A stretch of 64,000 nucleotides of DNA from a virus (IMGVR_UViG_3300012979_000002:1-64000), one strand, 5' to 3'. Shown: positions 13,070 to 57,160, numbered from the stretch's first letter. Program-made: numbers and translations. The notes: generated by a model not told the origin, from the letters alone.

Positions 13070-13114
13070 TCTATACCCCTTTACTAATTCATGGTATAGA
13101 TAAGGGGGTTGCCC

Positions 13115-35972: not shown

Positions 35973-36014
35973 TAGCGTTATTTTTTTATGCTTGAAAAGG
36001 AAGGAGGAAGAGAG

Positions 36015-39000
36015 ATGAATAATAAAAGAATTCAAGCACAAATGCAAATAGATGTTTCATTTGTTGGGAAAACAACCAATCTCGTAAAAGATTTACAGTC
36101 TGGCATTAAATCTTTAGACCTTAGCTCCGCTTTAACGAAAAATATAGGGTCTAATCTAAATAAAAGTTTTAAAGACATTTATGCTAACTTAGACCGTATG
36201 GCTGAAGGATTAAGCAAGAAAGGCTTAAGTCCAAAACAATACAACATATTTTTCGATACCATCAATGCGAAGGTAAACGAAACTGCCCAAATTTTTGGCA
36301 ATTTGAAGAAAACATTAGATGATGTTTATAATAGTGAAGAAAACAAGAAAGCGATTAAGGATTTAACAACCTTAAAGAAAGAGCTTGAAGGAATTAATAA
36401 AGTAGTTGCTAATCAAAAGAAACTACAAACAAGGCAAAACACAGCTAAAACAAAAATTAAAGACTTGACTGGTTATGATTATGATGCCATTAAAGGAGAG
36501 TTAAGAAAAATTATTAACCGTCAAGGTACGGGTAAAGATTTAACATCGGGACAAGAAAAATGGTTATATCAAGATTTAAAACTTAGTAAGGAAGAGGCGG
36601 CTGAGGTTTTAAAACTTTTCAAACAAATAGATAGCTTAAGACAGAAAGAATCAGACAATACAAAAGAATTTGGGTCTGACCCTTTTAAGACAAAAATAGA
36701 CACCGAGAAGAAGATAGCTCAATTAGAAAAAACAGCTTATACGGCAGATGCTCACAAACATAACTTGAGTGTGTTTAGACAAGAAGAGCAAGCTCTACAA
36801 GATGTATATAATATTTCGGACACTCTATTAAGTCACTGGAATAGTGAGGTGCCTAGAGCTACACAAGAGGCCAAAGAATTAGCAGAAGCACAAAGTACCA
36901 TTAAAGAGATTTTTGCTCAATTTGGTATTACATTCTCAGCGGCTACACTTGTACGTGGTTTCCAAGACTTAGTAAGAGAAGCATTTAACTTCTATAAAGC
37001 CTTAGACAGTGCTTTAAATGAAATATATGTAGTTAGTAATTTAACTATTAATGAAGTAAATAAATTGCAAACAAGTTTCGTTGACATGGCGAAAACAACA
37101 GGAATGTCTATAGATGACATTACTCGTTCAGCGACTTTATTCTTTCAACAAGGTTTGGATACTGAAGAAGCTATGACCATGACTAAGGTTACTTCTGAGT
37201 TTGCGAAAGTAGCTGGTATAGATGCTACTAGTGCAGCTGACAAATTAACAGCGGCAGTTAATGGTTATTGTTTAGCGGCAGAAGATGCGGCTAGAGTAGC
37301 TGACAAATTTAACAAAGTAGCAGCAGCATCTGCAGCAGACATTGATGAGTTATCAACAGCGTTCTCTAAAGCGGCAGCACAAGCTAACCAAGCCGGAGTA
37401 GGAATGGATAACTACTTAGCATACATAGCAACAATGGTTGAAGCAACACGTGAAGCACCAGAAAACATAGGTACATCATTAAAAACAATCATGTCACGTA
37501 TGCAACAAGTTAAGATGTCAGGAACTACTGAAGATGGAGAAACAGACGTTAACCAAGTAGAAACGGCATTAAAATCAGTTGGAGTAGCTTTAAGAGATGC
37601 TCAAGGTGAATTAAGAAATCTTGAAGATGTATTCGCAGAGTTAGGACCTAAGTGGCAATCATTAGATAGAAATACTCAAGCTTATTTAGGAACTATCATC
37701 GCCGGTACTCGTCAACAATCTCGTTTCATTACATTAATGCAAAACTGGGACCGTGTATTAGACTTAGCAGACCAAAGTGCTAATAGTGCTGGAATGCAAT
37801 CATTGATGCACGCCAAAGCAATGGAAAGCGTAGAATCAAAACTACAACAATTAAATGTAGCTTGGCAAGAATTTGTATCTAACTTAACTGACTCAGGGAC
37901 AATTAAAGTTGTAATAGAATTATTAACAAAATTAGTAGACGCCTTGAACGATGGTACAAAACCTTTAATGTTAATAAGTGGTATTGTAGGATTATTAGGG
38001 CCTAAGATTGCTAAGTTAAATAAACCGTTAGGAAATATGGTTAAACATATGAAAGACGGAATAAAAGGAGTAGCTGCTTCCGTTAAGGGAGTAATTACTA
38101 AGAAGGGAGTTCAAGACAACCCTGCATATTTTACATCTGAAGCAGAGAAGAACTTTGCTATGGCTGACATTAAAATGCAAGTAGATGCCAATAGACAATT
38201 ACAAACTAGAATGCAAATGCGTTATGACGAACTTAAACTACAAGGGTATACAATAGATAATAACCAAGAGATGGTTGAGTTAGAATGCATGATTAATAAA
38301 GCCAAAGAAGATGGTGTAAAACTATCGACTAAACAAATGGAAATTTCCAACAAAGAGGTTATGACTAAAAAACAAGCAATGCAAAACGCTATTATGGCTT
38401 TTGAAGTTGCAGCTCAATCTATTTCTATGATGTTGTCAGAAGTAGATGAAGCAGCAGCTGGAGCTGTATCTGGAGTGAGTGGAGTAGTTGCTGGAGTTGG
38501 TAAGATAGCCACTGGAGATATTGTTGGAGGTACTATTTCCACTATAATGGGTGTTATTCAATTAGTTGAAACATTTAAAGATTGGGATGAAAAGATGGCC
38601 AACAAATTGTCAGAAGCAGCTAATAATATTAATCAGGCTGCCACTGAATTGAGTAATACTAAAACACAAATTAATTCTACTAATGAGTTGTTAGACAGAT
38701 ATGATGAGTTACAAAACAAAATCTATCGTACAGCAGCAGAGCAAGAAGAATTAAATGACATAGCTCAACAAATGGCAGACTCTTTTGATAGTGTTGAAGC
38801 CATTACAGACGCGTATGGTAATTTAACCATTAATGTAGCTAATGCTCGTCAAGAGTTAGCTAATTTACAAGAACAATACAATGAACAATTTGAAGATTTG
38901 AATAAAACAGAAAAAGACAGTGTGTTAGATGCTACTTCTGGTTTAGGTAACACCAATACTTTAACAGAGGCTTACGAGAAGGTATGGTCTACTAATAGAG

Positions 39001-42000
39001 GTACATATCGTGGTATGCTAAAAGGAGTAAAAGATGGTCTAACAGACGAAAGTCGTAATGTATCAAAAGCTGTTGCGCAGGAGTTTAGTGAAAACCTAAA
39101 AGACGCCATTACCGATGAGGTAGAACACAATAGTTTAAAATACGGACATAAAGGATTATTAACTTCAATGGTAGATTTAGAAGAAGGAGTCACAGGAGAC
39201 CTTGAGAGCGAAGATTGGAATGAATTATACAATCAAATGAATGTTCTAGAACAAAACCTAGGGGATATGACTTTTGCTCAAGTACAAGAAAGTTTAGATA
39301 ATTTCTATAATAGCTGGTCAGGTAAAAATCAAACTACGTTAGAAGAGTGGCAGTTATTAAAAGATACTATTAATGGTACGTTGTATGATAATTCATCATT
39401 ATTACAATTTTATAAATCTACTGAAGAAACCATGAACAAATTAACAGACGATGACACTAAAGATATTTTAAAGGCGATGGATAATGTTATTAAGGAAGGC
39501 GCCGAATATCAAGTCACTAAGGCTGGATACATGGCAGGTGGAGCTGCTATTGGGGCTGGAGTTGGTGCTGCCGGTGGAGCTATCGGTGGAGCCATCGGAA
39601 CCTTTGGTGCAGGAGCGGTGCCAGCAGCTATAGCCGGGGCTAAAATAGGAGCTGGTGTAGGAGCGGCCGGAGGAGCGATAGCTGCATATTTCTCTAAAGA
39701 CGCTAAAGAATACCGTTTAGCAAAGAAAGAGTTAAAAGAAATTATCAAAGAAAATGAAGAAACTTTAAAACAAATAATGGAATCCAACAAAAACTTAAAG
39801 ACTGAGGAAGACGCGCTTAAATGGGTATATGCTCAAAATCAAGTGGCTGAGGCTTTAAAGAATACAACTCAAGAAACACAAAACTATTTGTCTGGTTTAG
39901 AGTCTTTATATGATATGTCAGGATTAGACGCAGAGCAAGCTGCTCAGTTCTCAACCGATTTACAATCAGCTTTAAGCCAAATTGAATTAGGTGGAACAGA
40001 CGCTGAAAAATATAATTATTTAGCTAAATGGTACGAAGAAAACCAAGATTCAATGACCGAAGAAATGAGAGAACATTGGCAAGAAATTTTAGACGATGCC
40101 TTCGATGGTTTAAAAATAACTGGACGAATGACTTTCTCACAAATTGGTAATGAATTAAAATCTATTAGCACCGACTTACAATCAATTAATAAATTAACTG
40201 CTGATTTCACTAAGAATGGCGGAATGGCATTAGATAGCTTTATTGAATTAGCTGGTATATTAGATGACATTAGCGCTGGAATAGGAGATTTGGGTCAATT
40301 ACCAGATGGAGCAAAATATGTAGATGAATACATAGATGCGATTGACCAATTAAATTTAGCTTATGATGCTAATACAGGTTATATCACAATGAATGGTGAT
40401 TCATTACAAACTCTACAAAAAATACAAGAAATACAAACTAAAGCAAAAATCGCTGGTATGATAGCAGATTTAAAAGCTAGTCGTGCTACTACAGAAACTG
40501 AGTTAGCATATATAGATGCTCAAATTGCAGCAACAGATGCCGCTATTGAAATGCTAGGAGCAGAAGCTGGTACAAAAATTACACAGTCTCAATTAATGAG
40601 CCAAGCTGATGCTGAATACATGAATGTGTTTGATTCTAAGATGGCCGACATCACAGCAGGATATAAAAACGATGTAACAAACAACAGTGAATGGGCAACC
40701 ACTATTTTAAATAATATAGGTGCGGTAAGTGCTGGATGGAATAAATATTTTACAGGTATTAGAGATGGTTCAGAAATACCTTTAGATGAGATTTATGGCA
40801 AAGCTGATACTGTATTAGATGGAAAGGACCACAAGTGGGAAGCCTCTTATGGAACTTCAGGTATCGATTGGAAATCTTATAGCGGTACTTTAACTACAGG
40901 GTCTGAGGAAGCAAACAGATTAAAAGCTGAACTAGAAGAGTATCGTACAAAACTAGTTAACACTCGTAAAGAGTATCAAGCTACCCTAGATACTACTAAT
41001 GCACAAATCAAAATGTTAGAAGGCATGATGGGTATGGATTTATCTAAATTAGGTTTAGATGGAGCCGTTGAAGAATTAGATAAATACATTGGAAAATTAC
41101 AAGAAATCTATAACATCTTAAATCGTATCCAAAACTTAGAACATCGCTTAAGTACTCTAGATACTTATTCAGAAATAGCGGTTGGAGAAGACTATGGTAA
41201 GTACTATAAAGAAAGATTAAAATACACCGAAGAGTTGAGTGACCAATACAAGTTCTTAGTAACAGAGCAAAAGAAATTCACTAACGGTTATATGGAATTT
41301 ATAGAGAACAGTGCCGTAGGAGACGTATTTGATTTTGACGAATTTGGTCAAATTATTATTGACTTTGAAAAGTATAACGCTTTACAAGATACAGCAGCTG
41401 ATGGTGAGAAGTCATTAAAAGAACAAGCTGATGAATTGTATGAAACTTACACTGGTATGTATGAGGAATTACAAGGATACTTTGATGAGTATATAACTTA
41501 CTTACAAAAAGCTATTGACTTACACCAAGAAGCGATTGACTCTTATGTAGAAGTAGAAAACACTATGGCAGATGCTATTAAAGAAATCTACCAAAAAATA
41601 CTAGATACTAAGTTAGAGGCAATTGACAAAGAAAAAGAAGCTCTAGAAGAATTAAAAGAAGCTAGAGAGCAAGCAAGAAAAGACCAAGAAAATGCTAAAG
41701 AAATTAGTGGATTACAAACTAACATCCAACGTGCGATGATGGATACATCAGGAGCTTCAGACATAGCATTCATAAAAGCTCAACAAGATATGACAGATAA
41801 ATTGGAAGCTATAGCTGATGACAAATACGCAGAAGAACTAGATAATATTATAAATCGTCTAGAAGAAGAGAAAGACACTCTACAACATAATTTTGATGAA
41901 ATGTTTGAAAACACTGATTGGCTATTCGGTTTCATTGAAGAAAACATCATGAACGACGAAGCTAAGATACAACAAATCTTAGAACAAACCGACAATTGGC

Positions 42001-42977
42001 AAACACAAAGTAATTTAGAACGTAAACAACAACTAGAGGCGTTAAGTACCGATTACAACACTTATATGTCTGCCTTAAGAGGAAAAGATGGTGAAGAAGG
42101 TACTATCTATGGTGTATGGAATAAATTACAAGAATTAAAAGGAGCAACTGAGGCCTTAGATAAAGCCCTACAAACTCGCGAAGTAAATGTAGGAACAGCA
42201 GTAGCTAACGCTATCGCAGCTGGCATCCAATCCAACAATTCTAATCCTGGAGGAAATGGAAATGGTGGAAACGGTGGTGGTGGCGGAGGCGGCGGCGGAG
42301 GCGGCGGGGGTGATGAGTATTATACCATTACCTGGGATTATGGTTACGACAACAAGAAAGAACCTCATAAAGTTATTAAAGGTAACCAAATTACGCTTCC
42401 TAAACTAGCTCGTACCGGCTACGAATTTGATGGATGGGATATTCCTTCTAAAAAGATTTGTTCAGTTGGAGCATACACTTATACTCCTACTGGCAACGAA
42501 ACAGTTACCGCAAGATGGAAGGCGCCAAAAACATCTACTACATCTACAACAACCAAGAAGACTGGTACTACTACAACTTACAGCCCTTATGCTGGAAATA
42601 ATAGAGGTATCTTAAGTGGAGTTGATACTCGTATTCCTACTAATAACCGTGGTTATTCTCATGGTGGACTTATAGACTTTACTGGTTATGCTATGTTGCA
42701 TGGCTCTATGACTAGACCAGAGATGGTTTTAGATGCCTTACAAACTAAACACTTTATAGATTTCACTGAAGCATTAGATGAAATGTATCGTGAAAGAGAT
42801 AGCTTCCGAACTTCTTATGAAGGAGGAAATATCACAATAGGTTCAATCGAATTTAATGTTGACTCAATGTCATCTGTTGAAGATGGTAGAGATGCTTTTG
42901 AGGCATTTGTAGATGAGTTCAAAAAAATTGGAGAGAGAACCGGAATTAAAATAAACACTTTTAAAAACATACTTTAG
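36015..42977 (+). CDS. tail tape measure protein
   Basis: ~2320 aa, coiled-coil; TP901-type core (ATREAPENIGTSLKTIMSR, AGTRQ..RF..LM.NW); C-terminal GG..D.TG..MLHG...PE.VL. Confidence 0.92.
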   Translation: MNNKRIQAQMQIDVSFVGKTTNLVKDLQSGIKSLDLSSALTKNIGSNLNKSFKDIYANLDRMAEGLSKKGLSPKQYNIFFDTINAKVNETAQIFGNLKKTLDDVYNSEENKKAIKDLTTLKKELEGINKVVANQKKLQTRQNTAKTKIKDLTGYDYDAIKGELRKIINRQGTGKDLTSGQEKWLYQDLKLSKEEAAEVLKLFKQIDSLRQKESDNTKEFGSDPFKTKIDTEKKIAQLEKTAYTADAHKHNLSVFRQEEQALQDVYNISDTLLSHWNSEVPRATQEAKELAEAQSTIKEIFAQFGITFSAATLVRGFQDLVREAFNFYKALDSALNEIYVVSNLTINEVNKLQTSFVDMAKTTGMSIDDITRSATLFFQQGLDTEEAMTMTKVTSEFAKVAGIDATSAADKLTAAVNGYCLAAEDAARVADKFNKVAAASAADIDELSTAFSKAAAQANQAGVGMDNYLAYIATMVEATREAPENIGTSLKTIMSRMQQVKMSGTTEDGETDVNQVETALKSVGVALRDAQGELRNLEDVFAELGPKWQSLDRNTQAYLGTIIAGTRQQSRFITLMQNWDRVLDLADQSANSAGMQSLMHAKAMESVESKLQQLNVAWQEFVSNLTDSGTIKVVIELLTKLVDALNDGTKPLMLISGIVGLLGPKIAKLNKPLGNMVKHMKDGIKGVAASVKGVITKKGVQDNPAYFTSEAEKNFAMADIKMQVDANRQLQTRMQMRYDELKLQGYTIDNNQEMVELECMINKAKEDGVKLSTKQMEISNKEVMTKKQAMQNAIMAFEVAAQSISMMLSEVDEAAAGAVSGVSGVVAGVGKIATGDIVGGTISTIMGVIQLVETFKDWDEKMANKLSEAANNINQAATELSNTKTQINSTNELLDRYDELQNKIYRTAAEQEELNDIAQQMADSFDSVEAITDAYGNLTINVANARQELANLQEQYNEQFEDLNKTEKDSVLDATSGLGNTNTLTEAYEKVWSTNRGTYRGMLKGVKDGLTDESRNVSKAVAQEFSENLKDAITDEVEHNSLKYGHKGLLTSMVDLEEGVTGDLESEDWNELYNQMNVLEQNLGDMTFAQVQESLDNFYNSWSGKNQTTLEEWQLLKDTINGTLYDNSSLLQFYKSTEETMNKLTDDDTKDILKAMDNVIKEGAEYQVTKAGYMAGGAAIGAGVGAAGGAIGGAIGTFGAGAVPAAIAGAKIGAGVGAAGGAIAAYFSKDAKEYRLAKKELKEIIKENEETLKQIMESNKNLKTEEDALKWVYAQNQVAEALKNTTQETQNYLSGLESLYDMSGLDAEQAAQFSTDLQSALSQIELGGTDAEKYNYLAKWYEENQDSMTEEMREHWQEILDDAFDGLKITGRMTFSQIGNELKSISTDLQSINKLTADFTKNGGMALDSFIELAGILDDISAGIGDLGQLPDGAKYVDEYIDAIDQLNLAYDANTGYITMNGDSLQTLQKIQEIQTKAKIAGMIADLKASRATTETELAYIDAQIAATDAAIEMLGAEAGTKITQSQLMSQADAEYMNVFDSKMADITAGYKNDVTNNSEWATTILNNIGAVSAGWNKYFTGIRDGSEIPLDEIYGKADTVLDGKDHKWEASYGTSGIDWKSYSGTLTTGSEEANRLKAELEEYRTKLVNTRKEYQATLDTTNAQIKMLEGMMGMDLSKLGLDGAVEELDKYIGKLQEIYNILNRIQNLEHRLSTLDTYSEIAVGEDYGKYYKERLKYTEELSDQYKFLVTEQKKFTNGYMEFIENSAVGDVFDFDEFGQIIIDFEKYNALQDTAADGEKSLKEQADELYETYTGMYEELQGYFDEYITYLQKAIDLHQEAIDSYVEVENTMADAIKEIYQKILDTKLEAIDKEKEALEELKEAREQARKDQENAKEISGLQTNIQRAMMDTSGASDIAFIKAQQDMTDKLEAIADDKYAEELDNIINRLEEEKDTLQHNFDEMFENTDWLFGFIEENIMNDEAKIQQILEQTDNWQTQSNLERKQQLEALSTDYNTYMSALRGKDGEEGTIYGVWNKLQELKGATEALDKALQTREVNVGTAVANAIAAGIQSNNSNPGGNGNGGNGGGGGGGGGGGGGDEYYTITWDYGYDNKKEPHKVIKGNQITLPKLARTGYEFDGWDIPSKKICSVGAYTYTPTGNETVTARWKAPKTSTTSTTTKKTGTTTTYSPYAGNNRGILSGVDTRIPTNNRGYSHGGLIDFTGYAMLHGSMTRPEMVLDALQTKHFIDFTEALDEMYRERDSFRTSYEGGNITIGSIEFNVDSMSSVEDGRDAFEAFVDEFKKIGERTGIKINTFKNIL

Positions 42978-44585: not shown

Positions 44586-47500
44586 ATGCAAGATTTTATA
44601 AGAATACGTGGGGAAATAATTTCTTCTCCATTAAACGAGAACTTTAGAAGACTATTAAACCAAATCAGTATCTCTAATACCAACTTGGTGTTCCCAGAAG
44701 AAAACGCCATAGTAAATACTTTAGATGACAGAGATGCTATTAAAAACCCAGATGATGCTCAAGTATGCTATGTTGTATCTAGTGGTGAATTATATCGTTT
44801 TTCTAAAAAAGATGACAAATGGTATAAAATTATGGACATCGGGCAAACCTTTAGACAAGGTTTTTTAAACTCTGGAGCAGTAGTATTAGAAGACATTATT
44901 AAACTAGAAGAAGGTAGCAACACAATACTGTCAATGCCTGATATGCTAGTTTATTTCAAAAACAAAGAAGGAGATAACAGATACCTTAAAGGTATGTACA
45001 AAATTGATGCTCAATCATTTGACGTGTCTCCTTATATAAGCAGTGCAGGAGCATTCTCTATCTTCATTGATGAGAACCAACACTATTTTATTAATGCAGG
45101 TATGCCTACTACAGACACTCCTAGCAACATTTACATAGGTTCATTTTTAACAGACAAGGAATCTCATGTAAGGTCTGATTTTATTTACACTATACCAGAC
45201 ATTGCTTACACCGCAGATAGAGGACATTTCTTCGTAGATGGTGGTAAAGTTAGTGGTTTAGATTTAGCACCAGCTTCAGGTAAGAAGATTGGACGTAAAG
45301 AAGGTTTTTATTATGATGAAGGTATCAGTTGTACTTTGGGAAGTACAGATGCTTTCCCAGCAGATACAGATAACGGGTCAAACTTTAACTTAAAATGGTT
45401 CCCAGCAGAAACCGAAACCGGTAATTTATATTATGCTTATCCTGTTGATACAATTAGTAATGGTTTTGAGCAAGTTCAAACCAATGAATTGATTATAGAT
45501 AAATTCTACAACCCAGACACAAAACAACTTGAGAAAGTAGAGAGTGGCTCATTTACTATACAACACCATTTAGTTACACCAAATGGTCAAAACATAATGA
45601 TTTATGGGCAAGCAGTTTACAACTCTTTTGTAGATGCTCAATCTAACTTAAACACTCCATTAGCAATTGATGCTGATTTCCCTTTTGCAGAAGTAACGAG
45701 AGTTATAGTAGGAAATGTAAGTGGATTTAGCACAGCCCATGAAACTGATTGTGATTTCTTTGTAATGCAACGTTTGGCACAAGTAGGAACTATCAGTCCT
45801 GTATTTGCTGATAATATTTTTACACTTTACAGTGGAGATGCAGAAGATGATGTTCCATCTCAAGTAAAATTCAGTTTAAAACAATTACAAAAAACACAGT
45901 TTAATAATGTTTATACTCTAAACATTAAAACAGATAAAGATAAAGAGTATTTGTTTGCTCTAGATAAACAATACTTATATGGGCATAACGATGCAACTAC
46001 CAATTCGACTATGTCTATCGCTGACAGGATTACAAACAGAGATTATACAAATAAAGTAGATGCAGTTTATGGTTACACAATACCAACTGAACATGATATA
46101 ACCACTTTACGTGATAGGGTTACTGCTATTGAAACAGAATTGTGGAAAGCTCCAGATGCTAAAGCTACTTTAGAAACATTAGAACAAAATATAGTTAATC
46201 AAAGCGTGCGCTTTAGATTATATGATATAGAGCGTAGAGCAACCTTAAATGAAACAGAAATTAAAAATCACGCTCGCGAATTAACTAGATTAAATTTAGT
46301 TAAGGTAGAAAAAGAAACAAGTATTAATGGTCATCCTCTTGGAGACCCAGAGAAAACAACTGTTGAACATATTACTCTATATACAGGGGACATTACTGAG
46401 GGCGCTGGTTTAAATAATAAGCCTAAGAACCTATGGTATACAGAGACTCGTGTTAGTAAAAACCCAGATGTAAAAAATGCTACAGACCATATTAACACAT
46501 TTGGTAGCGGCGCTGAGTCTACTAAAAACCCTCATAGACTAAGTACAGATGATTTAACTGTTGGAAGCAATAAGTTTGTTACACAAAACGACTTAAATAA
46601 ATTAGCAAATGTACCTGCTAATACAAATAATGAGTTAAATAAAAAATTAGAAAGTATTACTATACAATCACTTACAGGTACATCACCTACAACATTAGGA
46701 AAAGTTGATACAATAGCTGTAAAAACTTTTGGGGCTAAAATTTCGGTTGATGAAACTAACCGTATAGCTACTTTAGAATGTGTTGGTCAAATGGACCCAA
46801 ATGATTATATGTCTAAAGCTGATTATGCACATACATCAATGAATGACTCATCTAAATTTGGTTATGTAGATAAAGCCTTAAAGGCAGACAATTTAACAGC
46901 CGTTGCGGATGGAACTCCTAGCCAATACTACGGTACAAACGTAGATGGTATAGCTGGTGTTTATGATTTACCTAAATGGGTAGATACAGAAGACCCAGAG
47001 CGTGTTTTAACAGCAGATGCTGAATCAGTTATGTTCCAACCAGTACCACACAGTATTACTTTAAAACATTTAGCTAATAGTAAGGTATTATATACAAACT
47101 ACAATGAAGAAACTAAATTAAATACTAATGTATATGATTTAGTTAAAAATCATTATCATAAAGTATATAACGATGCTGTGCAAGGACCTTATTCAAATGC
47201 GAATAATACAGACCCAGTGGAAGCTACTGTATATTATGCTTACACAATCCCATCAGGCGGACTAAAGGGACAAACTTACCAATTTGCATGTGGCAATGAT
47301 TTATACCAATTCGCTGGTACCACTTCGATGGTTGCCGGTATGATATTACAATTTAATCCAAAAACCAAAACATTAGTATATGGTAATTTAAAACCTAATA
47401 CAGATTATACTATAAACAATCCAGTAACAGTAGGAGTAGACACACTTGAAGTCGACGACGTTAAGGAAGAGTTGTGGTTAGATTTTACTACTCAGACCGA

Positions 47501-48014
47501 TTGGAATAAAGTTAATGAATGGAATTTTGGAACAGGATTGAGTGTTCAAGTTTTAAATGGTAGGGCTACAATTAATGCCGTAAATCCATCAGCAAGTTCT
47601 GTTCGTCAATTCTCCTCTTTAGAAGACGTATCGGTTACATATGATGACACCAACGTTGGTAAACTGTTACAATTAGGGAAAACAGAATCTGGCGTATATA
47701 ATATAGAATTAACGTCAGCTCCTCCATTACACCTATACATGACTAAAGACAGTTATGCGTTCAATGATGAAAAAATTAAACGAGCAGTTAATTCAGATAA
47801 TGCTGACAGGGCAGATACAGCAGATAAACTACACAATCGTTATGCTGTAAACGATGCCGGTATTTCAAATTCAACTCTATGGTCAGCAGCACAAATTAAA
47901 TCAAACACTACTTCTCAAATTAAAGCTGAAGGTGTTAATACTTTTAGTGGCACTGGAGTGCCTACCAATGACATAGGTAAAGATGGAGATTTATACATCT
48001 TATTAGAAGATTAG
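44586..48014 (+). CDS. large tail/baseplate fibre protein
   Basis: 1142 aa; fibre-type motifs (NPH..., A..AD.AD.L, WSA.QI); ends GTGVP....G.DGDLY. Confidence 0.65.
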   Translation: MQDFIRIRGEIISSPLNENFRRLLNQISISNTNLVFPEENAIVNTLDDRDAIKNPDDAQVCYVVSSGELYRFSKKDDKWYKIMDIGQTFRQGFLNSGAVVLEDIIKLEEGSNTILSMPDMLVYFKNKEGDNRYLKGMYKIDAQSFDVSPYISSAGAFSIFIDENQHYFINAGMPTTDTPSNIYIGSFLTDKESHVRSDFIYTIPDIAYTADRGHFFVDGGKVSGLDLAPASGKKIGRKEGFYYDEGISCTLGSTDAFPADTDNGSNFNLKWFPAETETGNLYYAYPVDTISNGFEQVQTNELIIDKFYNPDTKQLEKVESGSFTIQHHLVTPNGQNIMIYGQAVYNSFVDAQSNLNTPLAIDADFPFAEVTRVIVGNVSGFSTAHETDCDFFVMQRLAQVGTISPVFADNIFTLYSGDAEDDVPSQVKFSLKQLQKTQFNNVYTLNIKTDKDKEYLFALDKQYLYGHNDATTNSTMSIADRITNRDYTNKVDAVYGYTIPTEHDITTLRDRVTAIETELWKAPDAKATLETLEQNIVNQSVRFRLYDIERRATLNETEIKNHARELTRLNLVKVEKETSINGHPLGDPEKTTVEHITLYTGDITEGAGLNNKPKNLWYTETRVSKNPDVKNATDHINTFGSGAESTKNPHRLSTDDLTVGSNKFVTQNDLNKLANVPANTNNELNKKLESITIQSLTGTSPTTLGKVDTIAVKTFGAKISVDETNRIATLECVGQMDPNDYMSKADYAHTSMNDSSKFGYVDKALKADNLTAVADGTPSQYYGTNVDGIAGVYDLPKWVDTEDPERVLTADAESVMFQPVPHSITLKHLANSKVLYTNYNEETKLNTNVYDLVKNHYHKVYNDAVQGPYSNANNTDPVEATVYYAYTIPSGGLKGQTYQFACGNDLYQFAGTTSMVAGMILQFNPKTKTLVYGNLKPNTDYTINNPVTVGVDTLEVDDVKEELWLDFTTQTDWNKVNEWNFGTGLSVQVLNGRATINAVNPSASSVRQFSSLEDVSVTYDDTNVGKLLQLGKTESGVYNIELTSAPPLHLYMTKDSYAFNDEKIKRAVNSDNADRADTADKLHNRYAVNDAGISNSTLWSAAQIKSNTTSQIKAEGVNTFSGTGVPTNDIGKDGDLYILLED

Positions 48015-48030
48015 TGAGGTGAGATAAACT

Positions 48031-49908
48031 ATGGCTAATTATAATTCTGAACCAGATTTAGTAAGTGATGAAGGTGGAAAACCAAGTATAACCTTTACAG
48101 TGCACTGTTATATAGGGCATGGTACTATTACCAGAAGTGGGGATATGGTTACCATTCCCCTTGGTTTAAAGCTAATTCCTCAAAAAACAGGCACTTCTAC
48201 TTGGATATTTAACTCGATAGGAGGGTCTTATGGCACCGAGTCTGGACAAAACATCCGATACGCCTTCAAAGGTAACGCAAGTAATCATTATACCGTTGAC
48301 ACCAAAAATCCACTATATTGCACATCTCGTAGTTTGAGTGTAGGGCAAAAAAATACTACTGATGAAACCCCTTGGAAATTAACTACTAAAGTTGACCCAG
48401 GACAAAAAACAGTAGATGTAAAAATGTGGGCCTCTTGGTCTCAGTTTACATTAGGCGCGGCGGGTAAAAATAATAAATGGGTAGAGGTAACTCGAAGCAT
48501 AGACATACCACAACCAACAGCACCATCTATAGGTGAGGCCACTTTTGAAGCCACTGGACGTACTACTGCATCTTTCCAGTGTGCCATATCGTCTCCTGGT
48601 AATTACAGTACTATTTCATCATATGTTTGGACTGTAACTGCAACCAATTTAGCTGCCACATATGATAGTCAAGATTTATATAAGGTACGCCAACATATTC
48701 TTGGTAATACTTTAATTCCTAATGATGAATTTTATAAATATGATTTTACTGGCGATGGCAAAATAGATGACGAAGATTTAGAACATTTGCGTCGTGCTAT
48801 AACTGGTTACCAAGAAACAACCGACTCTGGCGAAATAACTTATTTAGCACCAAATACAACTTATAATTGGACTTTAACAGTTACTAACTCTAATGATTTA
48901 AGTGCCACTACTTCAGGTAGTTTTACTACCTCTGGTAATTATCCGACAATTAAATCTGTCACAGCTTCATCAGATAGAACTAGTATTATGGTTAGACCTC
49001 AAGCTCTTTTTGATTATAATGATGACTTGGCGTCTTATAATTTAAGTTATGGTACAAGTAGTTCAAATTTATCTAGAGGACCTAGTACAGCCATTGTAAA
49101 CAATTTGCAACCAAACACAAAATATTATTATCAAATTTCAGTAACAAGTACACAAGGAAAACAGAGTACATATAAGACAGGAAATATAACTACCACCTGC
49201 TTAGCTCCTACTAATCCTGTTATTACTAGACTAGATGGCGATACTACTTCATTGAAGATAGGAGTTTCTGCTACAGGGGATACGAATGCTCCAATTAAAA
49301 ATTATGTACTAAAGTATACCGACCCAGATAATAATACCACTTCCATTCCTATGGGTAGTGCCACATCTACAATTATTCCGGGGTTATTACCAGATACCAA
49401 TTATAGATTTGTGTTAGTTGCTACAAATGATGGTGGGTCAGTTACATCATCTAATAATACGATTTATTCTACTGATTTGCCAGACCCAACGATTACCAAA
49501 ATCGAGGCTAGTAATATACTACCTTTTAGTTGCACTTTAACGGTTGATGCTTCTATCGTTCCATCTCGCGATTTAACTTATTCGTTTAGTAAGGATGGAC
49601 AAAACTGGACTCCTTACCAATCGTCACATATATATAATTGGGAAGGATTGAGTGAAGAAACAACATATAACATGCAAGTGCGTGTTAAAGCCGCTCACGA
49701 AGGAGCTAGTTCCAGTGACACTATTGCATCACGCACCATTGAGGTTATTACTCCAGCTGACCAAGCCAAAGTACGTATCCGTAAAGGGAATGCTTGGAAA
49801 AAAGGAAAACTTTGGTTTAAAAAAGGTGGACAGTGGAAGAAAGCTAAAAAAGTATATATTAAAAAAGGTGGTCAATGGGTTGTTGGCTACAATTATGAAA
49901 ACCAATAA
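48031..49908 (+). CDS. fibronectin type III repeat adhesin with inserted dockerin-like domain
   Basis: Four L.P/ENT.Y FN3 motifs; DFTGDGKIDDEDL Ca-loop. Confidence 0.75.
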   Translation: MANYNSEPDLVSDEGGKPSITFTVHCYIGHGTITRSGDMVTIPLGLKLIPQKTGTSTWIFNSIGGSYGTESGQNIRYAFKGNASNHYTVDTKNPLYCTSRSLSVGQKNTTDETPWKLTTKVDPGQKTVDVKMWASWSQFTLGAAGKNNKWVEVTRSIDIPQPTAPSIGEATFEATGRTTASFQCAISSPGNYSTISSYVWTVTATNLAATYDSQDLYKVRQHILGNTLIPNDEFYKYDFTGDGKIDDEDLEHLRRAITGYQETTDSGEITYLAPNTTYNWTLTVTNSNDLSATTSGSFTTSGNYPTIKSVTASSDRTSIMVRPQALFDYNDDLASYNLSYGTSSSNLSRGPSTAIVNNLQPNTKYYYQISVTSTQGKQSTYKTGNITTTCLAPTNPVITRLDGDTTSLKIGVSATGDTNAPIKNYVLKYTDPDNNTTSIPMGSATSTIIPGLLPDTNYRFVLVATNDGGSVTSSNNTIYSTDLPDPTITKIEASNILPFSCTLTVDASIVPSRDLTYSFSKDGQNWTPYQSSHIYNWEGLSEETTYNMQVRVKAAHEGASSSDTIASRTIEVITPADQAKVRIRKGNAWKKGKLWFKKGGQWKKAKKVYIKKGGQWVVGYNYENQ

Positions 49909-49999
49909 AGTAGAGGGAATTAACTTCCCTCTCTTTTTATTTTAGACCATTATAACATACTATAATTATAGAGATAAAAAAACACAAAGGAGGTAAAAT

Positions 50000-52552
50000 A
50001 TGTCATATCCTATTAAATTTTTAGTGGATAAAGAAGGAGTATCTTTTATCCCATACACTAATAGTCGAAGTGTATTAATTGATGGAACAGAGACTAAATT
50101 ACAAGACATTTTAGATGTTAAATTAGACCCAGCTGACGTTAAGGCTGGTGGTGATATTAAAGTAACTCCTACAAAGGACACTACTACTATAGCCTGGGTT
50201 CGTCCTACAAACTTAACCGTGCAAGACAATTTAACTACTGCAGCTGCCGGGCAAGGGGTATTAGACGCTCGTCAAGGAAAATTATTATTAGATAATATCA
50301 ATACTCGTATTTTGGCATCAGAAAAAGGAAAGGCTAATGGAGTGGCTACATTAGATGGCAACGGTAAAGTGCCAAGTGGTCAATTACCAGCTTACGTAGA
50401 CGATGTTATAGAATCATACATTGTAAGTGGAGCAACAGCATTAAGTAAGGGATGGTTATCCGCTACTTCAGGAGGAAGCGCCCTAACACCAGAAACAGGA
50501 AAGATTTATGTTATTATGAGTTCTGGTTCTTACCAAAATAAACAATACAGATGGGGAGGTAGCACATATGTATTGTGTAATCCATCTGATGTTAATTCAG
50601 TTAATGGTATGACTGGAGTTATTACTTTAAAAACATTAACATTAAAAACTGCAGCAGGTACTGCTAATACAGTAAATGAAACTTACAATGCTGGTACTGA
50701 TAAAACAGTTACAATTAATGTACCAACTAAAACTAGCCATATTACCAACGATAGTGGCTTTATCACTTCTTCAGCAAATATTACAGGTAATGCTACTACT
50801 GCTACAACTGCTGATAAGACAAAAGGTACATTAACTATTAAAATGAAAAACTATGACAACAACACCGAAACAACTGATACTTTTAATGGTAATGAAGATA
50901 AGACAATTACAATTGGAGTTCCTACTAAGGTTAGTCAATTAGAAAATGACTCTAAGTTCATCACTTCAAGTGCTTCTATTACAGGGAACGCAGCTACAGC
51001 TACTACTGCTACAACTGCTACGAAGACCCAAGGAACTTTAACAATTAAAATGAAGAATTATGATTCTAATACAGAAACTACAGATACCTTCAATGGTAAT
51101 GCAGATAAAACTATCACTATTGGAGTTCCAACAAAACTTAGTCAACTAAATAATGATACGGGTTTTATTTCATCTGTACCACAAGCAAGTACAACAGTAT
51201 CTGGTACTATTAAGATAGGTACTGGTTTGGCTATGGGAACTAATGGAGTAGTTTACGTAACAGGTGAAGGTGTTAGCGCCGAATCAATCGATTGGGAAAA
51301 CGTAACTAACAAGCCAACATATATTACAGACTGGAAAGATTATATTACTGCTGACAGCGATATTACAGGTAATGCTGCTACCGCTACAACATTAGAAACC
51401 GCTAGAACAATTAATGGAACATCGTTTAATGGTAGCAAAAATATTACAACTGCCAACTGGGGTACTGCTAGAAATATTAGTATATCAGATAGCGATGCTA
51501 CTAATACAGGTACAGCCGTATCTGTAAATGGTTCTGGAGCTGTAACCTTAAAATTACCAGCAACGATTAAAGCTTCATTAAGTGGTAAGGCAACAACAGC
51601 TGGAACAGCAGATAAAGCTAACAAAACAGCTGGAACATTAACAATCCAAAAAAATGGTACCAATGTAGCAACATTCGATGGTTCTGGTAATGCCACAGCA
51701 AATTTTACTTTTAAAACAAGTGAAATAACTAATGACAGTGGTTTCATTACAGCCAGCGCTTCAATCACTGGGAATGCAGGTACTGCTACAACTTTGGCAA
51801 CAGCAAGAACATTAACTATTGGTTCTACTGGTAAAACATTTAACGGTGGAGCTAATGTAAGCTGGACCTTAGACGAGATTGGAGCAGCCCCAAAAAGTCA
51901 TACACATAATTATGCTGGTTCATCTTCTGCTGGAGGAGCTGCAAACAGCGTTAAAACTAACTTAATTATTAAATTAAATAGCGGTACTACTGAAGGAACT
52001 AATCTATTTACTTTCAATGGTAGCACAGCTAAAACAATAAACATTACACCAAGTGCAATAGGAGCATCAGCATCTAGTCATGGTCATGATTATTTACCAT
52101 TAACCGGTGGAACAGTGTCAGGGCCAATAACCTCTTCACAAACTTCTTCAACTTGGATTAATTCAGCAAACGGAAAGAGTGCTATCAATTTAACTGGTAC
52201 AGGTTACACTGGATGGATAGCAGGTCCGTCTAAAACTGGTAGATTACTTATTTCAAGTTACTCAGGGAATGACGATAAAATATATTTTGGATATATGAGC
52301 AATGAAGCAATAACAGCAGGAACAAATTCCCTTACAAGACAAATGTCTTGGGACGGTGCTACTGGTACGCTAACTGCTACAACTTTTTCTGGAAAATTAG
52401 GTAATACTTTAACATTAACTAAAAATCGTTCAGATATAAGTTTTAATGGTTCAGCAGCACAAACTGTAATAATACCAACAATACATAATGGACCAGGCGT
52501 GCCAGCTGCATCATTAGGGCAAGACGGCGATATTTATATCGTAACAGGATAG
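50000..52552 (+). CDS. tail fibre protein
   Basis: KG.ANGVATLD.NGKVP..QLP.YVDDV; ITGNA.TAT repeats; L.TARTING..F.G. Confidence 0.85.
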   Translation: MSYPIKFLVDKEGVSFIPYTNSRSVLIDGTETKLQDILDVKLDPADVKAGGDIKVTPTKDTTTIAWVRPTNLTVQDNLTTAAAGQGVLDARQGKLLLDNINTRILASEKGKANGVATLDGNGKVPSGQLPAYVDDVIESYIVSGATALSKGWLSATSGGSALTPETGKIYVIMSSGSYQNKQYRWGGSTYVLCNPSDVNSVNGMTGVITLKTLTLKTAAGTANTVNETYNAGTDKTVTINVPTKTSHITNDSGFITSSANITGNATTATTADKTKGTLTIKMKNYDNNTETTDTFNGNEDKTITIGVPTKVSQLENDSKFITSSASITGNAATATTATTATKTQGTLTIKMKNYDSNTETTDTFNGNADKTITIGVPTKLSQLNNDTGFISSVPQASTTVSGTIKIGTGLAMGTNGVVYVTGEGVSAESIDWENVTNKPTYITDWKDYITADSDITGNAATATTLETARTINGTSFNGSKNITTANWGTARNISISDSDATNTGTAVSVNGSGAVTLKLPATIKASLSGKATTAGTADKANKTAGTLTIQKNGTNVATFDGSGNATANFTFKTSEITNDSGFITASASITGNAGTATTLATARTLTIGSTGKTFNGGANVSWTLDEIGAAPKSHTHNYAGSSSAGGAANSVKTNLIIKLNSGTTEGTNLFTFNGSTAKTINITPSAIGASASSHGHDYLPLTGGTVSGPITSSQTSSTWINSANGKSAINLTGTGYTGWIAGPSKTGRLLISSYSGNDDKIYFGYMSNEAITAGTNSLTRQMSWDGATGTLTATTFSGKLGNTLTLTKNRSDISFNGSAAQTVIIPTIHNGPGVPAASLGQDGDIYIVTG

Positions 52553-52567
52553 GAGGTGGAGTAAATT

Positions 52568-53902
52568 ATGGCTGGAAATATTAGAGGTAGATATTATGCC
52601 GAAGGTAATAGTTTTAAAGCAAATGTAACAACCAAGGGTAACGCCAGCTCTGCTGGTGGTGCTACCTCAGCATCGCAAATTAGCTCTGGCGCTACAATAT
52701 ATTACAGAAAGCATTCGGCTGGAGCTGCCTATCCAATTGCGGTTTGTAAAACTAACAATAACTGGGTTGATGGTTGGTATCCATTAAACATTGTCCCATG
52801 GGCTACGTATCCCGTATATTTAGATGCAAATGGAGGTTCTGGCGTTGCAGAATCAATCACTAAGACATGGGGAACCAATTACACGCTACCAGAACCAACG
52901 ACCGCCAAGCCTTCTGTAACCTCAGATGGATATAAAGTTACTTATAGTTATGGCAATGGTAACGCTAATACTTCGGAAACGGTAAAAAACACCACTTCAT
53001 ATACATTTGGATACTGGGTTGATGCTAGTTCCGGTGCTACAATAGCACAACCTTTTTCAGATGTTATCAAGGACGACCTAACTGGTTCTGATTCAATTTC
53101 TTATACGGGAGGAACGGCACCTGCCTCACGTTCTTTTAAAGCATATTGGGTAGATTCTTTTAAACGTGGTAGTGTAACGTTACCAACACCAACTTGGGCT
53201 AACACAACAACATCAGGTACTATTACTTATAATGCTTCCACTAATGGAGGTACATCTACTAAGGCATCTGATACTGTTAATTTAAAAGTAACGCATACGT
53301 TTAATGGTTGGTATAATGGAAGTACTAAAGTTGGTAACGCTGGTGCAAGTTATACACCTACAGCTAACGTTACTTTAACAGGTAACTGGACGAACACTTC
53401 AACGGGTAGTGCAAACATTACATTGCCTACTGCTTCTAAGGCAAACGGAACAGCTAGTCGTACGGTTACTATTAATGCTAACGGGGGTTCTACAACCGTA
53501 AGTTCTCGTAAATCAAATGCGACAATCACTTACACAAGTACTGGTTGGTGGACTGCTGCAAGCGGAGGTACAAAGGTTGGGAACAATGGTGCATCTATTA
53601 CACCATCAACAGCCCCTATCACGTATTATGCTCAGTTTAGTAGTTCAACTGGTTCATATAGTGCGGTAACATTGCCTACTGCAGCGCAATGCACCCGTAC
53701 AAATCATACTTTAAAAGGCTTCGCTACAAGCAGCACAGCTACGACAGCGGCATATGCTCCAGGAGCTTCTTATACACCAAGTGGTAATGTAACACTATAT
53801 GCCGTATGGGAAGATTTAACTGGTAGAGTATATGTTAAAAAAGATGGAGCTTGGGTACAAGCTAAAGCTGTTTATACTAAAGTAAACGGGGCTTGGGTAT
53901 AG
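52568..53902 (+). CDS. InlB B-repeat (Flg_new) adhesin
   Basis: ANGG...R..HT.KG.......Y.P....TLYAVW repeats. Confidence 0.75.
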   Translation: MAGNIRGRYYAEGNSFKANVTTKGNASSAGGATSASQISSGATIYYRKHSAGAAYPIAVCKTNNNWVDGWYPLNIVPWATYPVYLDANGGSGVAESITKTWGTNYTLPEPTTAKPSVTSDGYKVTYSYGNGNANTSETVKNTTSYTFGYWVDASSGATIAQPFSDVIKDDLTGSDSISYTGGTAPASRSFKAYWVDSFKRGSVTLPTPTWANTTTSGTITYNASTNGGTSTKASDTVNLKVTHTFNGWYNGSTKVGNAGASYTPTANVTLTGNWTNTSTGSANITLPTASKANGTASRTVTINANGGSTTVSSRKSNATITYTSTGWWTAASGGTKVGNNGASITPSTAPITYYAQFSSSTGSYSAVTLPTAAQCTRTNHTLKGFATSSTATTAAYAPGASYTPSGNVTLYAVWEDLTGRVYVKKDGAWVQAKAVYTKVNGAWV

Positions 53903-53917
53903 GAGGTGAAATAAATT

Positions 53918-55231
53918 ATGGCAGAATTAACATATAAAAAGTCCAACAATGGATATAATCAGGGTAGTAGTTTATTTTGTTTCGTACTAGACGGTGGTTA
54001 TGATACAGTTGGTGATGGTAAAGCTCGTGTTTGGGCTGATTGTTATTTATATTGTTCATGGGGTACTTCGTCTACCCCTTTCTATGGTTATAGTAGCCAA
54101 AGAGGGGGTTGGATAAACGGAGAATGTTTGTTCTGGGGTGAATTTGCTGAAAGTGGTGGCTCAAGTTGGCCATCTAGTGCAAGCTCTTGGTCTGGCAATT
54201 CTAGAACTATTGGAGGCACTGCGTATAAACAGAGAGCTCATGTGTTCTCAATTAGTAAAACTATTACATATGATTATGGTACAACGCCTAAAATTCCTGT
54301 TAGAATGACCTATACTCCTCAATGGACAGGTGGTTATGCTCCTAGCTCAAGTGTAGATATAACTGGCTATGTTACGTTGCCAGAACAAGCGCCACCAGCG
54401 CAATATTTTGATTTAAATGGTAGCTTAGATGGTACGGCACAGGGTGGTATTAGCCCTATGGGTACTGCTGACGTAACCATAGGCGGGACAAAGGTATTAG
54501 AGAATGGTACAGATTATTATACACAGCACGCCGTTGGTTCATCTTATACCGTAAATGATATTAAAGCCAATGCAGGTTATACCTATACTGGTAATAGTAG
54601 CTATACTGGTACCATAGGTAATTCTACAACAACTGTAGTTCTACCATTTACTACCAATTCATATACAGTATCATATAATGCCAATGGTGGAACTAGCACT
54701 CCAAACACACAAACGGCAAAATATAACACTTCTGTAAACCTAGCGTCAGCTATTAAGAAAAATAATACAAATGCTAATGTAACTATCACTATAACTTACA
54801 ATGCAAATGGAGGTTCTGGAGCACCGGGCAATAGTACCGGTACTGCTGTAAATACAACCCCATATACTTTCAGTAAATGGGCATTGGGCAGTACTTCGGG
54901 AACCAAATATGGTGCTGGAGACCCATATACTATTCCAGCGCAAAACAGTGTTATGTACGCAACTTGGACCACAGGTACCACTACCAGAAAATCAAATCCA
55001 AGTATCACTTTAAGTAATACAAAACCAACAAGAAGCGGTTATGTATTTAAAGGATGGAGTACTAGTTCAACGGCTACCTCTGCTTCATATAATGCCAATA
55101 CAGCCTATACTTTTAGTGCTAATACGACTTTATATGCCGTATGGGAGCCAAGCACTCAAGGAAATATTTATGTTAAACAAAACGGGGCTTGGGTATTAGT
55201 ATCTACTAAATACCTATGGGCTTATAGATAG
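53918..55231 (+). CDS. InlB B-repeat (Flg_new) adhesin
   Basis: YNANGG...PTRSGY.FKGWS....TLYAVW. Confidence 0.78.
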   Translation: MAELTYKKSNNGYNQGSSLFCFVLDGGYDTVGDGKARVWADCYLYCSWGTSSTPFYGYSSQRGGWINGECLFWGEFAESGGSSWPSSASSWSGNSRTIGGTAYKQRAHVFSISKTITYDYGTTPKIPVRMTYTPQWTGGYAPSSSVDITGYVTLPEQAPPAQYFDLNGSLDGTAQGGISPMGTADVTIGGTKVLENGTDYYTQHAVGSSYTVNDIKANAGYTYTGNSSYTGTIGNSTTTVVLPFTTNSYTVSYNANGGTSTPNTQTAKYNTSVNLASAIKKNNTNANVTITITYNANGGSGAPGNSTGTAVNTTPYTFSKWALGSTSGTKYGAGDPYTIPAQNSVMYATWTTGTTTRKSNPSITLSNTKPTRSGYVFKGWSTSSTATSASYNANTAYTFSANTTLYAVWEPSTQGNIYVKQNGAWVLVSTKYLWAYR

Positions 55232-55299: not shown

Positions 55300-55947
55300 G
55301 TGGAAACTATATTAGACACAGCGAAAACACTGGGAACAGCCATAGCTGAGTTCATTTTATTAATTTATTTTTGTAAACAGTACATTGAAAAGAACTCAGA
55401 CCGTATTAATATAGGTAGAGGCGTAAAAGAACAAAGTGAAATTAGCAAAGAAATTATTGATACCATGGACCACTACAAAGAATTATTAGGCGCCGACCGC
55501 ATTTTACTTTTTGAATTTCATAACGGACAGCACTATTCAAACTATCGTAGTGCTTTAAAAATGTCGGCTTCATATGAGGTATACAGAGCAGGTTTAGAAA
55601 GCGTACGTGATAAATGTACCGGACTTCCTATTGCAGTAATGCCTCATTTTGTGGCGGCTATTACTAATGAAGGTCAAGCATGGTGTCGTGACATTGAAGA
55701 AATTAAAGGCAAAATGGGGAGCAGTTACGAATTTAAGAAGAACTTAGGTATTAAGTCATTTTATGATGTGGCTATTAGAGATAGCGCAGGAAATACCATT
55801 GGTTTTGTAGCTGTTCAGTGGAACGATACAATGCCAGGCATCGACCCTCATAACATTGATAGGTTAGCTGGGTATCTAGAATCATCAGTTAAAAAGCTAA
55901 CTCAATTAGATAAACAAGAGAAAAAAAAGTTTAATTTTTTTAAATAA
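55300..55947 (+). CDS. single-TM GAF-like protein (possible T4-type holin)
   Basis: N-terminal TM; LGADR...FEFHNG...S..YE...IGFV. Confidence 0.55.
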   Translation: METILDTAKTLGTAIAEFILLIYFCKQYIEKNSDRINIGRGVKEQSEISKEIIDTMDHYKELLGADRILLFEFHNGQHYSNYRSALKMSASYEVYRAGLESVRDKCTGLPIAVMPHFVAAITNEGQAWCRDIEEIKGKMGSSYEFKKNLGIKSFYDVAIRDSAGNTIGFVAVQWNDTMPGIDPHNIDRLAGYLESSVKKLTQLDKQEKKKFNFFK

Positions 55948-56035: not shown

Positions 56036-57160
56036 ATGTTTAAAGTAAAAGTATTATTACAATTCACAGATTTAACTACTAAAAGAAAGGAAGTGCGCAA
56101 ACCAGGAGATATTTACACAATAGACAACTATGACCGTGTAGAAGTTCTGTTAGGGAAGAACCCCCGCAAGGCAAAATTTGTAGAACTAATTGAAATTGAA
56201 AAACAATGCCCTACTACACACACGGAAAATAAAATCGTGGTTTTCCAAGACCTGTTGTATCGTATAGGAGGTATCGAAACTTTTGTGTTCAATTTCGTAA
56301 AGAACTTTAAAGACTATGACATTACTGTTATAGCTCGTGAATTTGCGTTAACACAAATGTTGGCTATAGCTCAATACGCTACTGTGAAGAAATATACGGA
56401 GGAGAGAATAGAGTGTGATACATTAATTCTAGGCAATTATAATTGCGACTATGTATTACCAAGGGTAAAAGCAAAAAAGATATATCAGATAATACATGCT
56501 GATTGGAGAGGTATTAAACAATTACCAGCATGGAAGGATTTCAAATGGACAAAGAACAAACGCATCGATGAAATCATTTGTGTATCGGATACGGCAGCTA
56601 CTGGATTAAAAGCTACCATGAATTATGATAGTAAGGTTATCCATAATATTTTAGACAATGATTATACCATAGAGGATGGCTTAACTTTCATAACAATGTC
56701 AAGAGCTACCCCAGAGAAAGGTATCGAACGAATGTTAAAAATGGCTCAAGAGTTTAAAAAAGCCAATAAAAAGTTTGTATGGTTTGTATGCTGTACATTA
56801 GACCAAGCCGATAGAAAAATTGTAGAGGCTATTAAACAGATACCAGAATTTGTAATCATCCCACCAAGCATTCATAATAAAATGCTAATTAAAGGATGCG
56901 ATTATTTAGTACAATTAAGTGATACAGAAAGTTTTTGTTATAGTGCCTATGAGGCATTACAACGCAATGTACCTGTTATTTTAACTGATTTCCCAGAAGC
57001 TCATAACATTGTAGATGATGGAGAAAACGGTTTTATTATAAAAAGAGATTTAAGCAATTTGGACGTAGATAGAATTTTCAATGAACGTCCTAAATCAACA
57101 TATTATGTAGATAGATGTAACCAAGATTTATGGTTGCAAGTTTTTAAAGGAGAATTATAG
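56036..57160 (+). CDS. glycosyltransferase (GT4/GT-B)
   Basis: IGGIETF, SR..PEKG, DYLVQLSDTESFCYS..EAL...PVI.TD, ENGF. Confidence 0.88.
   Translation: MFKVKVLLQFTDLTTKRKEVRKPGDIYTIDNYDRVEVLLGKNPRKAKFVELIEIEKQCPTTHTENKIVVFQDLLYRIGGIETFVFNFVKNFKDYDITVIAREFALTQMLAIAQYATVKKYTEERIECDTLILGNYNCDYVLPRVKAKKIYQIIHADWRGIKQLPAWKDFKWTKNKRIDEIICVSDTAATGLKATMNYDSKVIHNILDNDYTIEDGLTFITMSRATPEKGIERMLKMAQEFKKANKKFVWFVCCTLDQADRKIVEAIKQIPEFVIIPPSIHNKMLIKGCDYLVQLSDTESFCYSAYEALQRNVPVILTDFPEAHNIVDDGENGFIIKRDLSNLDVDRIFNERPKSTYYVDRCNQDLWLQVFKGEL

Follow-up and report, generated by a model that had tools for sequence, protein, structure and literature searches.

How can an adhesin that acts as a single chain be fixed to the tip of a three-fold fibre, and can such a joint be recognized from gene sequence? 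A tail locus in the viral genome IMGVR_UViG_3300012979_000002 raises this question. We analysed nucleotides 1-64,000 (the window), the first 64 kb of a 120.5 kb single-contig phage genome of 35% GC. Two fibre genes there are followed by genes for one and two adhesins, respectively, and fibres and adhesins end in two different conserved motifs. We propose, with a probability of roughly 0.6, that these motifs are the halves of a split module, in which a conserved fibre tail and a downstream triple of hairpins join monomeric adhesins to the trimeric fibre tip. The genes and motifs concerned are the following.

44586-48014, + strand: fibre 1, Tal-position tail tip/fibre protein, 1142 aa, after the genes for the tape measure protein (TMP) and Dit
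47949-48011, + strand: fibre 1 tail motif, GTGVPTNDIGKDGDLYILLED, putative first half of the split module, conserved in relatives
48031-49908, + strand: adhesin 1, 625 aa, with a variable N-terminal head, FN3 repeats and a C-terminal hairpin triple
49771-49890, + strand: hairpin triple of adhesin 1 (residues 581-620), which aligns with 50 other triples
50000-52552, + strand: fibre 2, repetitive fibre shaft, 850 aa, matching PHROG tail fibre families
52487-52549, + strand: fibre 2 tail motif, NGPGVPAASLGQDGDIYIVTG, putative first half of the split module
52568-53902, + strand: adhesin 2a, 444 aa, with Flg_new (InlB B-repeat) domains and two terminal hairpins at 53825-53899
53918-55231, + strand: adhesin 2b, 437 aa, Flg_new, with one terminal hairpin in a foldon-like end at 55163-55228

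Both fibres closed C-terminally on the consensus G.GVP....G.DGD[LI]YI..., fibre 1 with GTGVPTNDIGKDGDLYILLED and fibre 2 with NGPGVPAASLGQDGDIYIVTG, as stated in a preliminary description of this DNA. In six-frame open reading frames (ORFs) of the whole 120.5 kb genome, the core pattern G.P....G..GD.[YFW] was confined to these two C-termini. Hairpins of the form Y.K..G.W were found at the adhesin ends, three in adhesin 1 (VRIRKGNAW-KKGKL-WFKKGGQW-KKAKK-VYIKKGGQW), two in adhesin 2a (VYVKKDGAW-VQAKA-VYTKVNGAWV) and one in adhesin 2b (IYVKQNGAWVLVSTKYLWAYR), which bears out the earlier count of three repeats behind fibre 1 and 2+1 behind fibre 2. Across all six frames of the genome this motif clustered at the three adhesin C-termini only; the remaining matches were few, isolated, or part of a different, contiguous motif at 69682-71775. 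Each of the junctions between these genes had its own stop codon and ATG, with a ribosome-binding site of the GGAGGTG type, which indicates that fibres and adhesins are separate genes.

The domains assigned to the adhesin bodies in the preliminary description stood in part. FN3 was present in adhesin 1 (fn3, PF00041, 68.4 bits, above the gathering threshold of 25), and InlB-B was recovered as Flg_new (PF09479, InlB B-repeat; gathering threshold 27) in adhesins 2a (34.5 bits) and 2b (55.3 bits). Dockerin_1 (PF00404) scored 18.2 bits in adhesin 1 (E 0.0028), under its gathering threshold of 22.9. The window adhesins had no match to Pfam Gly_rich, and a candidate likeness between the N-terminus of adhesin 2a and an endolysin wall-binding domain was unsupported (BLASTP best E 0.73).

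Elsewhere the two motifs occur in one chain. A contiguous form, GD-x-W followed after 8 residues by Y-x-Y-x-G-x-x-W, was found in IMG/VR at at least 119 viral loci with the consensus [ST].P.....GDLW.DT....LY.Y.G..W.L.GP; among the matches listed it often lay at residue ~70-115 of fibre-like proteins and was sometimes repeated. The dialect of the window itself was contiguous in P0023 (771 aa), a protein of the representative library with eight modules between GXY collagen runs. The fibre 1 tail matched P0023 residues 71-94 with 58% identity over 24 aa (pairwise E 4e-7), and P0023 continues from there into a hairpin. The fibre 2 tail matched residues 589-612 (50% identity over 24 aa, pairwise E 2e-05), and directly after this match the adhesin 2a hairpin TGRVYVKKDGAWV matched residues 613-625 (54% over 13 aa). 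Since the tail and hairpin matches abut in P0023, the gene boundary of the window corresponds to the turn that separates strand 1 from the hairpin: the window fibres have the Pro lead and G-D-x-[WY], elements that stand 8-9 residues ahead of the hairpin in the contiguous form, and lack the same-chain hairpin ([LV]Y.[KY]..G..W), so that the module stands in two halves. The earlier suggestion that both motifs belong to one small contiguous module is thus supported by the viral loci and by the eight copies in P0023. P0023 is a bacterial-type, LPXTG-anchored collagen-like protein, so that the module also occurs outside phage fibres. One tail-ending protein (L091) carried a complete module at residue 105 together with a half-module at its C-terminus. 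Comparison by hhalign of an alignment of contiguous modules (A3) with the fibre 2 tail aligned 6 columns only.

If the halves belong together, they should be neighbours in other genomes as well. IMG/VR was scanned with a DNA pattern for two tandem Y.K..G.W units only, which gave at least 119 loci; 108 of these had the at least 250 nt of upstream sequence needed for assessment, and a tail was defined as P..G..GD-x-aromatic near an ORF end. Among the matches listed, a tail-ending ORF lay directly upstream on the same strand in 84 of the 108 loci and within 1.5 kb in 15 more (99/108 in total), with fibre-adhesin gaps of mostly 0-13 nt. As background, the tail expression matched 23 of the 7008 remaining ORFs in these loci, and in 33 unrelated control loci it matched none of 5594 ORFs. 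The hairpin proteins formed 58 clusters; 51 could be assessed, and a tail was adjacent in 37 and either adjacent or within 1.5 kb in 46. The reverse direction was read from a second set, the at least 119 contiguous-motif loci, where each of five tail-ending ORFs was followed by a hairpin-repeat ORF. Independent occurrence of the motifs had been named in the preliminary description as the observation that would speak against it, and both directions showed the motifs not to be independent. Clear pairs were also present in two of four extra contigs taken from the protein library, and in the cultured Pelagibacter phage HTVC023P, where the pair is annotated separately as gp69 ('putative tail protein') and gp70 ('hypothetical'). 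The hairpins lay N-terminally, in the middle or C-terminally within the partner proteins. The marine partners, which are unrelated to the window adhesins, were Gly-rich and gp38-like (Pfam Gly_rich_2, 30.6 bits, above threshold) and matched phrog_863, a family annotated 'tail fiber assembly'. Collagen GXY runs were tried as a marker of trimers and dropped, as they picked up poly-Gly adhesin domains instead.

The number of hairpins was regular. We aligned 51 triples from different clusters, adhesin 1 included (alignment A4), and 51/51 sequences aligned as three.VK..G.W units with spacers of 5-6 residues. AlphaFold2 on A4 predicted six strands in three hairpins with pLDDT 83-93; with a shallow clade alignment the triple region reached pLDDT 60-80. 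The A4 profile matched 5741 representative clusters at E <= 1e-3 among 1.84 billion. Within the best 150 of these 5741 matches, 119 had exactly three hairpins, the module lay at the extreme N-terminus in 112 and at the extreme C-terminus in 26, and the protein was <=70 aa long in 8. A 2+1 split recurred in an unrelated lineage (L095 and L118), where one protein closes with two hairpins and the next ORF starts MATLYNQYIYK[DN]GAW. The claim of three hairpins per fibre accordingly held for the aligned triples, the best library matches, this second 2+1 lineage and the close relatives of the window described below. The triple was also found at the N-termini of phrog_25859 and phrog_36019, PHROG families of unknown function.

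The triple has no Pfam family, and neither sequence nor fold searches returned a solved structure for it. With a 52-aa triple model, Foldseek gave a best E of 1.3 and VIA-align no Z >= 2; when PDB sequences were searched with A3 and A4 profiles, the matches were spurious or marginal only (TPR designs, NEQ068, and the DUF2793 protein 8rk3 at E 0.13). A chimera of tail plus hairpin drew weak matches to a PQQ-type beta-propeller blade and to the foldon, which we took as generic beta-hairpin likeness. Complete ORFs of 40-50 aa consisting of the triple only were observed in L050 (908-1048) and L144 (21-140), the former directly behind a fibre ending GNNGDIIYQY; such ORFs may represent the cap in its smallest form, with no adhesin body attached.

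Close relatives of the window were examined as 8 contigs obtained through matches to the fibre 2 C-terminus together with L001 (IMGVR_UViG_3300028797_000007, 1-17857), the nearest IMG/VR relative. All 9 shared the synteny TMP-Dit-Tal-adhesin-fibre 2-adhesin(s), and tail and hairpin motifs were kept in 8/8 relatives that use genetic code table 11 and in one that reads TGA as Trp. Hairpins per fibre were constant in the clade, three after Tal and 2+1 after fibre 2; the 2+1 split was kept in 8 relatives, and in L001 one adhesin of 754 aa bore all 3 hairpins instead. In the protein collection, 12/12 close relatives of the fibre 2 C-terminus ended GQ[DN]GDIYIVTG, and in these the last ~45 aa of fibre 2 were constant while the shaft varied. 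Identity profiles showed the N-terminal 150-250 residues of the adhesins to be replaced among the relatives (2-24% identity) and the C-terminal halves and hairpins to be 70-100% identical. For adhesin 1, the N-terminal 250 aa were 2-24% identical in some relatives and the C-terminus 84-92%; for adhesin 2b, the N-terminal 150 aa were swapped. The adhesins thus proved swappable in the sense originally meant, with heads replaced and hairpin ends conserved. One relative (L043) combined a Tal tail and hairpins of the L001 type with a fibre 2 set of the main type, which indicates that tail and hairpins travel as a unit. In the tail module of L001, the relative that reads TGA as Trp, all in-gene stops were TGA where the relatives have W, and under table 4 its Dit, adhesins and fibre 2 regained full length; the genes of the window phage read cleanly under table 11.

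The mechanism that we propose runs as follows. The complete module, small and three-stranded, would comprise a Pro lead, a GD-x-aromatic strand, a turn and a Y-x-K-x-x-G-x-W hairpin, and would normally be contiguous in trimeric fibres and collagen-like proteins. Here it would be divided between genes, each fibre stopping after strand 1, so that the fibre trimer would present three half-modules. The missing hairpins would be supplied by the downstream protein or proteins, as a tandem triple (adhesin 1) or as 2+1 (adhesins 2a and 2b), and the triple would dock onto the C-termini of the trimer, giving each of the three fibre subunits one hairpin and completing the modules. In doing so it would register or cap the trimer end, and the three-fold tip would come to bear monomeric adhesins; the conserved anchor of tail and hairpins with its exchanged heads could serve as a modular host-range device. 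Homology, coupling, stoichiometric regularity and head swapping all support the interpretation first given for this locus. We infer the tail-hairpin contact, the geometry of strand pairing, the 3:1 and 3:1:1 stoichiometries and the presence of the adhesins in the virion; one triple (or 2+1) is placed on three fibre C-termini because of the rule of three and the analogy with the phage proteins gp38 and pb5 discussed below. Completion of an incomplete beta unit by a strand of another protein is the principle of donor-strand complementation in chaperone-usher pili. Those are linear polymers of Ig-like pilins in bacteria, whereas here a trimer would be matched to a three-repeat chain.

Several points weigh against this reading. 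Any two components of a fibre would likewise be expected to have adjacent genes. The loci are not independent events, since many come from few families and 37 from one marine family, and the cluster-level count of 46/51 is a fairer figure than the locus count. Two of the four extra library contigs had no clear tail, and in one superfamily just two hairpins were clear, together with an end of 19 aa. Lastly, adhesin 2b has a foldon-like end, so that it could homotrimerize instead of giving the third hairpin.

One alternative is that the triple acts in trans as an assembly cap, nucleating or registering fibre trimerization and perhaps leaving the virion, with the FN3 and Flg_new bodies secondary. 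The stand-alone triple ORFs of L050 and L144, the eight proteins of <=70 aa among the best 150 library matches, the phrog_863 annotation of the marine partner and the resemblance of the hairpin to the T4 foldon would all suit such a role. In most cases, however, the partner is a large protein that combines domains of adhesin type (FN3, Flg_new or Gly-rich gp38-like) with a swapped head, as fits a virion adhesin, and we consider a dedicated cap unlikely. It would need the same tail-hairpin contact and is in that respect a variant of the split module, not its opposite.

A different possibility is that tail and hairpins do not touch at all and are remnants of a cut fibre gene kept by synteny, with the adhesins forming foldon-like homotrimers attached through other surfaces. 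The last 43 aa of adhesin 2b score 18.3 bits against Fibritin_C (PF07921; E 0.0027, cut-off 21), adhesin 2a scores 13.5 bits, below the same cut-off, AlphaFold2 folds the triple confidently without a partner, and adjacency alone is no proof of binding. What makes this improbable to us is that the same turn is broken in dozens of unrelated families while the position of the hairpins varies, which is hard to obtain by repeated neutral fission; that homotrimerization would not lead one to expect a constant total of three per fibre, whether one gene or two encode it; and that the tail is the most conserved part of fibre 2.

The hairpins could also be receptor-binding cell-wall repeats of a choline-binding-like kind, the variable N-termini then being the anchors. 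The K.NG.W hairpin repeats superficially resemble CW_binding repeats, and the host is likely Gram-positive, judging from the CHAP endolysin and the Flg_new domains. Yet the C-terminal pieces gave no Pfam CW_binding_1 or choline-binding match even at E up to 10, the conserved end is the hairpin end while the heads vary, the same triple occurs in gp38-like adhesins of pelagiphages with Gram-negative hosts, and the coupling to fibre tails would be left without explanation; we regard this as very unlikely. Least credible is read-through or frameshifting that would yield one fibre-adhesin polypeptide with a contiguous module: fibre 2, 2a and 2b do share one reading frame, with TAG ... TAA between them (52550-52567; 53900-53917), and in some other pairs the stop codon is directly followed by an in-frame ATG, but two in-frame stops, a strong ribosome-binding site and an ATG stand at each junction, the frames of fibre 1 and adhesin 1 differ, 2a and 2b are out of frame in relatives (the fibre 2-2a spacer of 15 nt is kept in 8/8 relatives; the 2a-2b spacer is 13 nt in the others), and fusion would give no contiguous module with the window hairpins at the far adhesin C-terminus.

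The split module, as proposed, can be set beside characterized fibre tips. In phage S16, gp38 is a monomer that caps the trimeric gp37 via three helices with one Trp each (PDB 6F45; PMC6851490). The likeness to S16/T2 gp37-gp38 comprises a monomeric adhesin from an adjacent gene on a homotrimeric fibre, pseudo-threefold attachment and a conserved Trp per repeat, and the Gly-rich adhesin body of gp38 recurs in the marine partners described above. The elements differ: gp38 places a three-helix bundle in pockets of an interdigitated beta-helix, whereas here three tandem beta-hairpins are predicted, the fibre ends in a conserved half-module, and the triple may stand at either terminus and may be divided between two proteins. 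In T5 pb5, a small single-chain subdomain has been proposed to continue the trimeric pb4 spike as a trimer-to-monomer adaptor (bioRxiv 10.1101/2022.09.22.509047); this is a small beta-helix built from distant loops, with no tail/hairpin code and no split module.

The foldon of T4 fibritin (PF07921) shares the Pro-rich lead and a Y-V-[KR]-K-D-G-x-W-V hairpin, three of which stand about a three-fold axis at the fibre C-terminus, and the adhesin 2b end IYVKQNGAWVLVSTKYL is similar. The foldon is contiguous, with one hairpin per chain in a homotrimer, the adhesin 2b match stays under the Fibritin_C cut-off as given above, and the window fibre tails carry an extra GD-x-Y strand. Streptococcal phage Tal extensions and the junction module of Tuc2009 BppA contain '3-beta domains' of ~60 aa between collagen-like linkers, described from AlphaFold models only (PMC9437275). 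Like the P0023 modules, these have three antiparallel strands per chain between trimeric collagen-like segments, and the two may be one and the same; neither a partner protein nor a split form has been described for the '3-beta domains'. We found no description of the tail/hairpin motif pair in the searchable literature, a search that was incomplete, so that an earlier description is possible. The system appears to add a widespread variant to the known trimer-to-monomer fibre-tip adaptors.

The fibre and adhesin genes stand in a tail module ordered TMP, Dit, Tal-position fibre 1, adhesin 1, fibre 2, and adhesins 2a and 2b, in which the following features were also assigned.

35988-42977: TMP, 2329 aa
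43066-44571: Dit, Pfam Sipho_tail
49912-49943, + strand: terminator-like hairpin and T run, read from the sequence as AGAGGGAA..TTCCCTCT then TTTTTATTTT

The terminator-like element, 3' of adhesin 1, would divide the locus into a Tal/adhesin 1 unit and a fibre 2 unit. A run of ~14 Gly was seen around residue 2100 of the TMP. Fibre 1 matched no Pfam or PHROG family, and the tail genes of the window had no counterpart among GenBank phages by megablast or tblastn (50,697 phages for the fibre 1 tblastn). Two genes lie 3' of the adhesins. The first (55300-55947) encodes a protein in which a single hydrophobic N-terminal stretch was seen by eye and which matched GAF weakly, at 17.6 bits and under the cut-off; the second (56036-57160) encodes a GT4 glycosyltransferase. 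Their position is kept in most relatives, and in some a metallophosphatase replaces the glycosyltransferase. Past the window end, the contiguous motif at 69682-71775 belongs to a 698-aa ORF with two copies of LVPAPAAGKQASFLRGDGTWVVP, in which a Pro-rich lead runs on into a hairpin, much as in the T4 foldon, a hint that this phage has a second fibre system.

Annotation is lacking for most tail fibre genes of phages and for the genes around them, and only in a few model phages has the attachment of distal adhesins to a trimeric fibre been resolved at the atomic level. We give even odds to the broader proposition that the tail/triple pair is a general, sequence-readable trimer-to-monomer connector, in which one chain with three hairpins would serve as a foldon in trans, registering three fibre C-termini while fixing a monomeric or 2+1 heteromeric distal protein, in thousands of lineages. 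If so, the connector would span phages from the gut Firmicutes type to pelagiphages, and would be a third structural solution for the joint between a three-fold fibre and a monomer, after the helix bundle of S16 gp38 and the beta-helix of T5 pb5. The motif pair would then mark the partners of fibre proteins and their stoichiometry, and fibre architecture, assemblies and adhesin partners could be predicted from metagenomic sequence. Adhesins would be exchangeable as long as the tag is kept, making it a compact means of fixing chosen binding domains to the fibres of laboratory phages, and the same arrangement would explain how these phages swap heads without disturbing fibre assembly.

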